IMG/VR virus record: IMGVR_UViG_2925939204_000003
Span: 1 to 32,291 of that record
Direction: 5' to 3' (one strand)
Length of the DNA stretch: 32,291 nucleotides
DNA from: a virus
Taxonomy: Duplodnaviria > Heunggongvirae > Uroviricota > Caudoviricetes
The notes below the pieces were generated by a model, which was given only the letters and a program-made list of their open reading frames with translations, was not told the DNA's origin and made no database searches. The position numbers were made by a program, and so were the translations under genes. Within the stretch, counting starts at the first letter, position 1; the number at the start of each line of letters is the position of its first letter. This document shows, piece by piece, positions 14,265 to 14,574 of this stretch.

Positions 14265-14340
14265 GGCCCTTTAGCTCAGTGGTGAGAGCGAGCGACTCAT
14301 AATCGCCAGGTCGCTGGTTCAAATCCAGCAAGGGCCACCA
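14265..14340 (+). tRNA. tRNA-Ile2 (anticodon CAU, lysidine type; ileX/ileZ-like)
   Basis: Clean cloverleaf; anticodon loop CUCAUAA; close to recalled E. coli ileX sequence. Confidence 0.8.
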
Positions 14341-14341
14341 G

Positions 14342-14418
14342 CCGCCACTAGCTCATCAGGAAAGAGCGTCAACCCTTTAAGTTGAGTGTGCGAGGTTCGA
14401 GTCCCCGGTGGCGGTCCA
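14342..14418 (+). tRNA. tRNA-like gene, anticodon ambiguous (loop CCUUUAA, nominal UUU); possibly degenerate
   Basis: Acceptor, D and anticodon stems pair; position 33 is C not U; one A-C mismatch in T-stem. Confidence 0.45.
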
Positions 14419-14420
14419 GT

Positions 14421-14496
14421 GCCGACTTAGCTCAGTAGGTAGAGCAACTGACTTGTAATCAGTAGGTCACCAGTTCGATTCCGGTAGTCGGCACCA
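14421..14496 (+). tRNA. tRNA-Thr (anticodon UGU)
   Basis: Acceptor GCCGACU/AGUCGGC, anticodon loop CUUGUAA; one A-C mismatch in T-stem. Confidence 0.7.
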
Positions 14497-14499
14497 TAT

Positions 14500-14574
14500 G
14501 CGGGCATCGTATAATGGCTATTACCTCAGCCTTCCAAGCTGATGATGCGGGTTCGATTCCCGCTGCCCGCTCCA
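14500..14574 (+). tRNA. tRNA-Gly (anticodon UCC, glyT-like)
   Basis: GCGGGCATCGTATAATGGCTATTACCTCAGCCTTCCAAGCTGATGATGCGGGTTCGATTCCCGCTGCCCGCTCCA matches recalled E. coli glyT. Confidence 0.85.

Follow-up and report, generated by a model that had tools for sequence, protein, structure and literature searches.

What is the second gene of a four-gene transfer RNA (tRNA) cluster in a lambdoid prophage, and is it of use to its carrier? The question is raised by IMG/VR virus record IMGVR_UViG_2925939204_000003, positions 1 to 32,291; this whole stretch of 32,291 nucleotides (nt) is called the window below, and it is a lambdoid prophage integrated at tRNA-Ser(CGA) (serU), next to mtfA. The tRNA genes fill positions 14265-14574 on the + strand. 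As an initial annotation, made from the sequence alone, had described, they are tightly packed, with spacers of 1, 2 and 3 nt (ARAGORN). They are listed here with their scores for the Rfam tRNA model RF00005, which has a gathering score of 29.

14265 to 14340, + strand: tRNA-Ile2 (CAU), here tRNA1; called by ARAGORN, Rfam (72.5 bits) and PGAP (as tRNA-Ile)
14342 to 14418, + strand: atypical tRNA-Lys(UUU) with an argN-family body, here tRNA2; called by ARAGORN as Lys(ttt), by Rfam (44.4 bits) and by PGAP
14421 to 14496, + strand: tRNA-Thr(UGU), a copy of mature host thrU, here tRNA3; called by ARAGORN and Rfam (73.8 bits)
14500 to 14574, + strand: tRNA-Gly(UCC), a copy of mature host glyT, here tRNA4; called by ARAGORN and Rfam (64.9 bits)

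The initial annotation was right in naming the first, third and fourth genes as Ile2, Thr and Gly. It left the anticodon of the second gene ambiguous and, on account of a C at position 33 and a mismatch in the T-stem, suspected either a pseudo-tRNA or a non-canonical one. Both peculiarities are indeed present (C at 14375; A51·C63 at 14393/14405). The anticodon itself is resolved as UUU (Lys) by ARAGORN, and PGAP also calls a tRNA-Lys. As it stands in the window, tRNA2 is a non-canonical, weakly constrained tRNA and not a pseudogene by standard criteria, as this allele passes the tRNA models and its stems are not broken. Judged by its sequence, it is unrelated to host tRNA-Lys and is a homologue of argN, a tRNA-Arg gene of Shiga toxin (Stx) phages, with a changed anticodon. 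That tRNA2 is a functional spare tRNA-Lys, with a structurally competent body of argN lineage, is the reading that we favour, tentatively and at a little less than an even chance. As an object, the cluster is unremarkable, and hundreds of genomes already have it annotated: 301 of 5,426 complete Escherichia coli genomes match at least 80% of a 601-nt cluster query, and Ile/Lys/Thr/Gly is the PGAP annotation at the cluster sequence in complete E. coli genomes.

Origin of tRNA2

Comparison with the host gene did not reveal homology between tRNA2 and tRNA-Lys: tRNA2 and lysT agree at ~47 of 79 aligned positions, and gaps are required to align them. With the F349 allele of Stx-phage argN (tRNA-Arg UCG), which occupies the same slot after ileZ, tRNA2 is identical at 65 of 77 positions, and the two genes have in common C1-G72, U73, A20 and the A51·C63 mismatch. 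argN, which has U33, scores 43.0 bits with RF00005 against 44.4 bits for tRNA2; because the U33 gene scores alike, the low covariance score is a trait of the family and not an effect of C33.

The 12 differences between tRNA2 and the F349 argN fall at positions 7, 17, 20a, 30, 33, 35, 36, 40, 43, 44, 47 and 70. Five of these lie in stems, and all five keep or improve pairing: U·G becomes C-G at 7-66, U·G becomes U-A at 27-43, G·U becomes G-C at 3-70, and G-C becomes A-U at 30-40, the last being a double, compensated change. Once the Sakai and Nil3 alleles are included, there are three pairs in which both partners change, and pairing in the anticodon stem is complete (100%). Covariation scores 0.188, compared with 0.145 for shuffles, of which 2 in 500 score as high, and no double change is seen in any of the slid control structures. 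Because the sample is only nine sequences, the covariation is supportive but not conclusive. In structure, the F349 argN allele is intermediate between the Lys type and argN of the Sakai type. These comparisons are consistent with a lineage of argN whose anticodon would have shifted from Arg (UCG) to Lys (UUU), alongside U33C and the compensated replacement of G30-C40 by A30-U40.

Other anticodons occur on the same body. In IMG/VR prophage contigs it is combined with U33 and UCU (Arg) in L140, and with U33 and UUG (Gln) in L202 and L199, in each case within an Ile2-X-Arg(UCU) cassette. The sole differences between L140 and L202 are at anticodon positions 35 and 36. As the search pattern targeted the anticodon, this sample of variants is biased; an apparent concentration of substitutions in the anticodon (P ~0.001, L140 vs L202) is not relied on for that reason. 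Across prophages, one body carries four anticodons: UCG, UCU, UUG and UUU. C33 is found solely with UUU, where it is invariant in ~120 copies, and targeted scans revealed no C33 together with an Arg anticodon.

In Yersinia phage YeP2 (L134, 401-478), a tRNA-like gene that shares this acceptor and T-arm body is found between Q and the holin gene. Its loop is CAUUGCC (A33, C37), ARAGORN calls it Gln UUG, and tRNAs with CAU and UCC follow it; it is a second case of this body without U33. The literature on ileZ, argN and argO yielded nothing relevant, and in the literature searched no account was found of a C33 tRNA-Lys from bacteria or phages.

Structure and identity elements of tRNA2

tRNA2 begins at 14342 with C1-G72, and its anticodon loop reads C32 C33 U34 U35 U36 A37 A38, with the anticodon at 14376-14378. 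The initial annotation had considered that covariance models might reject this gene, and they do not: it passes RF00005 with a score well above the gathering score (E = 1.8e-06). Twenty of the 21 cloverleaf pairs are standard, the exception being the A51·C63 mismatch in the T-stem CGAGG/CCCCG. Folding to the minimum free energy (MFE) is uninformative on tRNA quality, as tRNA1 misfolds in silico too, and the energy of the cloverleaf was evaluated instead. At -22.3 kcal/mol, it lies within 2.7 kcal/mol of the MFE of -25.0 kcal/mol. Also present are U8, A14, G18 G19, U54 U55 C56, A58, a purine at position 37 and an encoded CCA; like argN, tRNA2 has U·G at 15-48. Canonical elongator tRNAs have U33, in place of which all Lys-type copies have C33.

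Lysyl-tRNA synthetase (LysRS) reads mainly the anticodon, and tRNA2 has the Lys anticodon U34 U35 U36. A73 is a LysRS identity element of E. coli tRNA-Lys; at this position tRNA2 has U73 (T at 14415), which is common to argN. For arginyl-tRNA synthetase (ArgRS), C35 is the main anticodon determinant and A20 a further element, and of these tRNA2 keeps A20 and has U at positions 35 and 36. From these elements we infer that tRNA2 most likely accepts lysine and reads AAA and AAG, though inefficiently. The switch to U36 also created 36-UAA-38, a determinant of N6-threonylcarbamoyladenosine (t6A) at position 37, on a D-stem of G10-C25, C11-G24 and U12-A23. The bacterial t6A determinants consist of 36-UAA-38 together with such a D-stem, and at residue 33 the modifying enzyme has no base-specific contact (PMC13276492). 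A natural C33 is known from yeast tRNA-Leu(GAG), which is functional, its decoding being roughly on a par with that of the U33 version (PMC13492127).

A shifted reading of the loop was also considered, in which CUUUAAG would present the ochre-suppressor anticodon UUA. It was rejected, as the shifted stem pairs at only 1 of 5 positions (by hand).

Motifs of tRNA-directed nucleases

UUU is the anticodon of the host tRNA that is hit by PrrC, PARIS AriB, RorSlfn5 and, secondarily, P2 Old. PrrC cuts tRNA-Lys 3' of residue 33, between residues 33 and 34 (PMC2610378), and AriB cuts it between residues 40 and 41 within U36AAUC/A41 (PMC11464382, PMC12409363). The bacterial Schlafen RorSlfn5 cuts tRNA-Lys(UUU) (PMC13056530), and tRNA-Lys is a secondary substrate of P2 Old, whose motif is a paired C28-N-G30/C40-N-G42 (PMC12445682). 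U39A alone abolishes AriB cleavage (PMC12409363), and T5 tRNA-Lys escapes PARIS in that way (PMC11464382). Divergent phage tRNA-Lys genes rescue infection from PARIS (PMC11464382); with PrrC170, too, divergent phage tRNA-Lys genes rescue infection, whereas E. coli tRNA-Lys gives low restoration only (PMC11555353).

At the AriB site tRNA2 reads U36AAGUU, which matches at 3 of 6 positions (4 of 6 in the resistant T5 tRNA-Lys), and it is without U16-U17. The Old motif is perfect in argN, and both of its halves are lost in tRNA2. Immediately 5' of the PrrC scissile bond, tRNA2 has C instead of U. These motif comparisons make a nuclease-escape role plausible: a spare tRNA2 would sustain Lys decoding once host tRNA-Lys had been cleaved. 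That escape is the selective reason for the gene, with a body unseen by host-tRNA-Lys-directed nucleases keeping Lys decoding alive, is possible, although we think it somewhat unlikely. We consider unlikely a more general proposal, according to which lambdoid prophages would use one body as an anticodon-swappable slot (UCG, UCU, UUG, UUU) and so make host-unrelated replacements for U34 tRNAs destroyed by local nucleases; U33C would then block a PrrC-type cut between 33 and 34, and A30-U40 would remove the Old and AriB sites.

Asn(GUU)-Thr-Gly cassettes occur in related lambdoid phages, and one of them, Asn(GUU)-Thr(UGU)-Gly(UCC), is found in Escherichia phage JLK-2012 (L204, 365-598). Its Thr allele has G42U and U43C, which leave a 3-bp anticodon stem without the second CNG, like the Old-resistant tRNA-Thr21; therefore, escape alleles exist in this module family. 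At positions 39 and 41, the Asn allele does not match the AriB site.

The three ordinary tRNAs and codon usage

tRNA1 is identical to Stx-phage ileZ at 76 of 76 positions (100%) and to K-12 ileX at 68 of 76. Because it is identical to ileZ and has an ileX-like body with CAU, and not a Met body, it is a tRNA-Ile2, which reads AUA after lysidine formation. tRNA3 is identical to K-12 thrU (76/76, 100%) and tRNA4 to K-12 glyT (75/75, 100%), and for both the identity to the host ends precisely at the mature tRNA termini, the flanks being unrelated. In the host, thrU and glyT are single genes in the operon thrU-tyrU-glyT-thrT, which has spacers of 8-116 nt; in the cassette, tyrU and these spacers are absent, and Thr and Gly are joined by 3 nt. 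Gene conversion and an RNA-mediated route are both possibilities for the capture of such mature-length copies.

Codon usage was compared between 34 open reading frames (ORFs) of the prophage (9,007 codons) and 49 kb of K-12. The initial annotation had proposed AUA, ACA and GGA as the codons to examine, and all three proved to be enriched, ATA 2.4-fold, ACA 2.2-fold and GGA 2.5-fold (p <= 4e-6). The Ile2, Thr and Gly tRNAs fit classical codon supplementation, in which they would add dosage for low-copy host tRNAs that read the A-ending codons enriched in the prophage.

Distribution of the cassette

Among 127 sampled copies, the cassette is Ile2-Lys-Thr-Gly in 97, Ile2-Lys-Arg(UCU) in 14 and Ile2-Arg(UCG)-Arg(UCU) in 7, and the remaining 9 are partial clusters that miss one member. 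The intact tRNA2 allele is the commonest (68/127), and the isolated phage genomes 606R7 and PhiR47_1 carry either this allele or one that differs from it at two positions. In an exact-pattern scan of one genome per species, the tRNA2 family was found only in E. coli and Shigella. A tRNA-Lys of the tRNA2 type is present in ~15% of complete E. coli genomes.

Spare tRNA or relic

Several results weigh against a functional tRNA2, the polymorphism of the gene foremost. Nucleotide diversity (pi) was measured in 38 haplotypes with homologous flanks, as a comparison over all loci is confounded by mosaic, non-homologous flanks. For tRNA2 it is 0.0205, close to the 0.0246 of the non-coding downstream flank, as for a neutral sequence, and 15 times that of tRNA1 (0.0014; 0.0096 for tRNA3 and 0.0059 for tRNA4). 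The gene is present in 797 E. coli genomes, with a copy of at least 99% identity in 278, so that more than half of the copies fall below that value; among the 30 matches listed, the tRNA-Lys annotation is confined to copies of at least 99% identity, and copies of 96-97% are left unannotated by PGAP. Flank-level diversity and these unannotated copies leave a basis for the suspicion of a pseudo-tRNA outside the window. Alleles with a D-stem deletion, U8C or an internal deletion are common: the PPompW allele (T12 deletion in the D-stem) falls below the Rfam cut-off, the Stx2c internal-deletion allele fails tRNA models, and U8C or internal deletions are found in other lineages. Among independent argN lineages, the single T-stem defect differs from one to the next (G·U in Sakai, A51·C63 in F349, A52·C62 in Nil3). 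The MFE z-score of tRNA2 is -1.46, and U73, the T-stem A·C and C33 are all expected to lower its performance. Flank-level diversity, decayed copies, U73 and the varied T-stem defects together indicate that selection on slot 2 is weak at best, and many prophage copies would be decaying. For escape in particular, the Thr copy of the cassette is the Old-sensitive host sequence and not an escape allele, and overexpressed thrU gives little or no protection against Old (PMC12445682). A search for a preference of PrrC or HEPN nucleases for the base at residue 33 found no published data. Finally, the window prophage cannot make virions, and counter-defence is moot for this copy.

The same results are much of what would be expected if tRNA2 were an effectively neutral relic, that is, an argN copy that has lost its Arg identity and persists between the conserved ileZ and the Thr/Gly genes in one transcription unit, slowly decaying and of no use in translation. 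Such a gene would have a low covariance score and fold z-score together with the non-canonical U73 and C33, and an anticodon that goes unread would be expected to drift, here among four identities on a single body. We regard this as a serious, if doubtful, possibility. However, the stem substitutions between the major lineages are all either compensated or changes from G·U to a Watson-Crick pair, one of them a double change, and the changes gave rise to a sense anticodon flanked by canonical C32 and A37 A38, with the t6A determinant in addition. Stem-breaking changes are mostly singletons, whereas G·U changes reach high frequency, and the commonest allele, which also occurs in isolated phage genomes, is the intact one. 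Loop positions 33-38 never vary in the ~120 copies, although their invariance among 13 variable sites is not significant alone (P ~0.15, hypergeometric estimate).

Two further explanations would leave tRNA2 in use without any part in escape, or without decoding. As a fourth codon supplementer, it would serve AAA-rich phage genes and have no link to defence. Its three neighbours fit supplementation, and early-region genes contain 45.6 AAA per 1000 codons compared with 36.9 in the K-12 sample. Over the whole prophage, however, the odds ratios of AAA and AAG are 0.95 and 1.06 (not significant), and AAA is rarer in late genes (27.6 per 1000) than in the host. Moreover, a single locus of the host already contains at least five tRNA-Lys(UUU) genes (five in K-12), to which a weak, mismatched tRNA would add little. 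Since AAA and AAG are not enriched and the host is so well supplied, supplementation does not explain the tRNA-Lys, and we hold it to be quite improbable. Still less probable, to the point of being far-fetched, is a tRNA2 that acts without decoding, whether as a decoy that titrates a tRNA-Lys nuclease or as a recoding or mis-acylated tRNA (Arg via A20; a shifted U-turn reading UAA via U35 U36 A37). Non-productive complexes are raised as a possibility for phage tRNAs in the AriB study (PMC12409363), but the AriB recognition elements are absent from tRNA2, which argues against tight binding. The retained A20 would favour charging with Arg, but the more important C35 is lost. C33 removes the canonical U-turn nucleotide, for which U34 could in principle substitute; however, the stem found by hand to fail in the shifted register has no alternative, the code of lambdoid E. 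coli phages is the standard one, and under table 11 the late ORFs of the prophage are intact. A functional spare tRNA-Lys under weak selection is the reading that we carry into the comparison with known systems below.

Prophage context and expression

The cluster is a late-region cassette, and along this part of the prophage follow genes for DUF968, RusA, Q, the tRNAs, a phage-21-type holin, DUF1327, lysozyme and Rz.

13381 to 14070, + strand: late antiterminator Q (Pfam PF06323 Phage_antiter_Q, E = 1.3e-89; Q in the near-identical strain 165 prophage)
14054 to 14082, + strand: predicted pR'-like late promoter, TTGCAA-17-TATATT (consensus scan, 9/12)
14086 to 14163, + strand: candidate short RNA from pR' to the tR' intrinsic terminator (hairpin 14134-14157, then U6)
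14227 to 14264, + strand: sigma-70-type promoter of the cassette, TTGCAA-17-TATTAT, at 14227-14255 (consensus scan), followed by the G+C-rich stretch CCTGCGCCC
14581 to 14706, + strand: two perfect hairpins, after tRNA-Gly and before the holin gene (inverted repeats with arms of 11 and 16 nt, complementarity 100%)
14867 to 15082, + strand: phage-21-type holin S, the first late gene after the cassette (Pfam PF04971, E = 1.4e-35)

The pR'-like promoter sits at the end of the Q gene, as in lambdoid phages, and would act as the late promoter. The tR' hairpin has an energy of -16.6 kcal/mol (z = -3.3); the promoter/terminator scan flagged the same hairpin on the minus strand. The initial annotation had placed the cluster downstream of a pR'/tR' pair, which holds (14054-14082; 14134-14163), and had made its expression dependent on late antitermination, which is improbable as a sole dependence, since the cassette has a promoter of its own at 14227-14255. 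The G+C-rich stretch after this promoter reaches the first base of tRNA1. The promoter is kept in the cassettes of Stx phages, PPompW, Evi and PhiR47_1 despite divergent upstream DNA, its equivalent in VT2-Sakai is annotated as a 'putative tRNA promoter', and pi is 0.012 over 14227-14264 compared with 0.040 just upstream. With a conserved promoter between tR' and tRNA1, Q-mediated read-through is thus unlikely to be the sole source of expression. We infer that the cassette would be transcribed from its own promoter and that, on induction, Q-antiterminated read-through from pR' would provide additional transcription.

The candidate ~75-nt pR'-tR' RNA (14086-14163) gives full-length, sub-threshold matches to the Salmonella prophage small RNAs (sRNAs) isrK and isrJ. 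Downstream of the cluster, the arms of the two hairpins lie at 14581-14591/14616-14626 and at 14634-14649/14691-14706. The fold of 14575-14745 has a z-score of -5.03, and the hairpins have no Rfam match; they are possibly a processing or termination element. In Escherichia phage Evi (L005, 2665-2851), an STnc100 sRNA (Rfam, 119.9 bits) lies downstream of an Ile2-Lys-Arg cassette, and it is absent at the equivalent position of the window.

Loss of the head genes makes the window prophage defective: a block of ~8.3 kb from terminase to head completion (terminase, portal, protease, capsid, connector) is present in the strain 165 prophage and absent here. The deletion is marked by the ORF at 17571-18122, a fusion in which an HNH endonuclease N-terminus is joined to a tail-assembly chaperone. 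Compared with the strain 165 prophage, the window also has a 1.1-kb insertion of low G+C content (0.35-0.42) at 16425-17553, with a lone ORF for a GNAT acetyltransferase (16633-17118, minus strand). No antitoxin-like ORF lies upstream of this ORF, and it has no PADLOC or NCBIfam match. A link of the cluster to a neighbouring tRNA-targeting toxin was considered and rejected, as PADLOC gave no defence-system match for the GNAT ORF or for nine further ORFs. The sole PADLOC matches are to a helix-turn-helix-domain, repressor-like ORF (6606-7322), and five of the tested ORFs have no meaningful NCBIfam match.

The attachment site tRNA-Ser(CGA) lies at 892-981, next to an integrase-sized ORF on the minus strand (1034-2059); the integrase is frameshifted in the related strain 165 prophage. 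Three further RNAs score above the Rfam gathering thresholds: the DicF sRNA at 5407-5458 (minus strand, 76.7 bits), the sok antitoxin RNA at 10525-10700 (+ strand, 111.9 bits), which lies beside a hok-type ORF, and IS009 RNA at 32053-32251 (+ strand, 225.6 bits), near the end of the window.

Significance and comparison with known systems

New with respect to the literature searched is the nature of the second gene, an anticodon-shifted tRNA-Arg with C33 and without the cleavage motifs of three nucleases directed at tRNA-Lys or tRNA-Thr. If tRNA2 is functional, escape tRNAs would not be limited to large virulent phages such as T5 but would be carried by temperate phages as well; the gene would then be a natural case of tRNA identity switching and would offer a ready-made C33 substrate for work on PrrC specificity. 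If, beyond this, the slot is indeed swappable, nuclease-proof tRNAs would arise via identity switching and not by divergence from a host gene. If tRNA2 is a relic, it would be a clean natural case of the decay of a tRNA gene inside a conserved operon, and calls of 'tRNA-Lys' in prophages would need caution.

The nearest relative of the cluster is the ileZ-argN-argO cassette of Stx phages (933W, VT2-Sakai, Stx2a_F349), in which Q, pR'/tR', a tRNA promoter, the tRNAs and the late genes follow in the same order. The initial annotation had contrasted the set in the window with that of Stx phages. The tRNAs do differ, but they do not form a separate cassette: the promoter is the same, ileZ is 100% identical, and slot 2 is homologous (65/77). 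Slot 2 has UUU with C33 and a remodelled anticodon stem in the window, and UCG with U33 in Stx phages. Slot 3 holds argO (UCU) in Stx phages and copies of thrU and glyT in the window, and the gene downstream is stx in the former and a holin gene in the latter. In sequence terms, the cluster in the window is the same cassette as in Stx phages, with slot 2 re-coded and slot 3 swapped.

The PARIS-resistant T5 tRNA-Lys(UUU) resembles tRNA2 in joining the anticodon of the nuclease target to an altered 39-41 segment; positions 36-41 read U36AAACC in T5, U36AAGUU in tRNA2 and UAAUCA in the host. The T5 gene, however, is a tRNA-Lys that has diverged; its acceptor is Lys-like, it has A73 and the normal loop CUUUUAA with U33, and its resistance is experimental. 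By contrast, tRNA2 belongs to a temperate phage, has a tRNA-Arg origin, U73 and C33, and is predicted to be resistant. A change of amino-acid assignment by anticodon substitutions on one body also has a laboratory parallel: Saks, Sampson and Abelson reportedly converted, in 1998, E. coli tRNA-Arg(UCU) to a functional tRNA-Thr(UGU) by an anticodon point mutation. Theirs was a laboratory selection on a chromosomal gene, whereas the tRNA2 family consists of natural prophage alleles whose reassignment is predicted from their sequences.

Among the other tRNAs that resist nucleases, tRNA-Thr21 of phage 21 and further Old-resistant tRNA-Thr(UGU) genes (PMC12445682) are likewise tRNAs of the late region of lambdoid phages. 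The JLK-2012 Thr allele has a short stem as described for tRNA-Thr21 and lies in the same Thr-Gly module as that of the window, whereas the Thr(UGU) gene of the window is unlike tRNA-Thr21 in being host-identical and Old-sensitive. With yeast tRNA-Leu(GAG) (PMC13492127), tRNA2 shares a C in place of the near-universal U33 of an elongator; the yeast tRNA, which still decodes, differs in being eukaryotic and in having another anticodon. Compared with these systems, the origin of tRNA2 as an anticodon-shifted argN, with C33 solely together with UUU and with both the Old and the AriB motifs lost, makes it a variant of modest novelty on the themes of phage tRNA cassettes and of nuclease-escape tRNAs.

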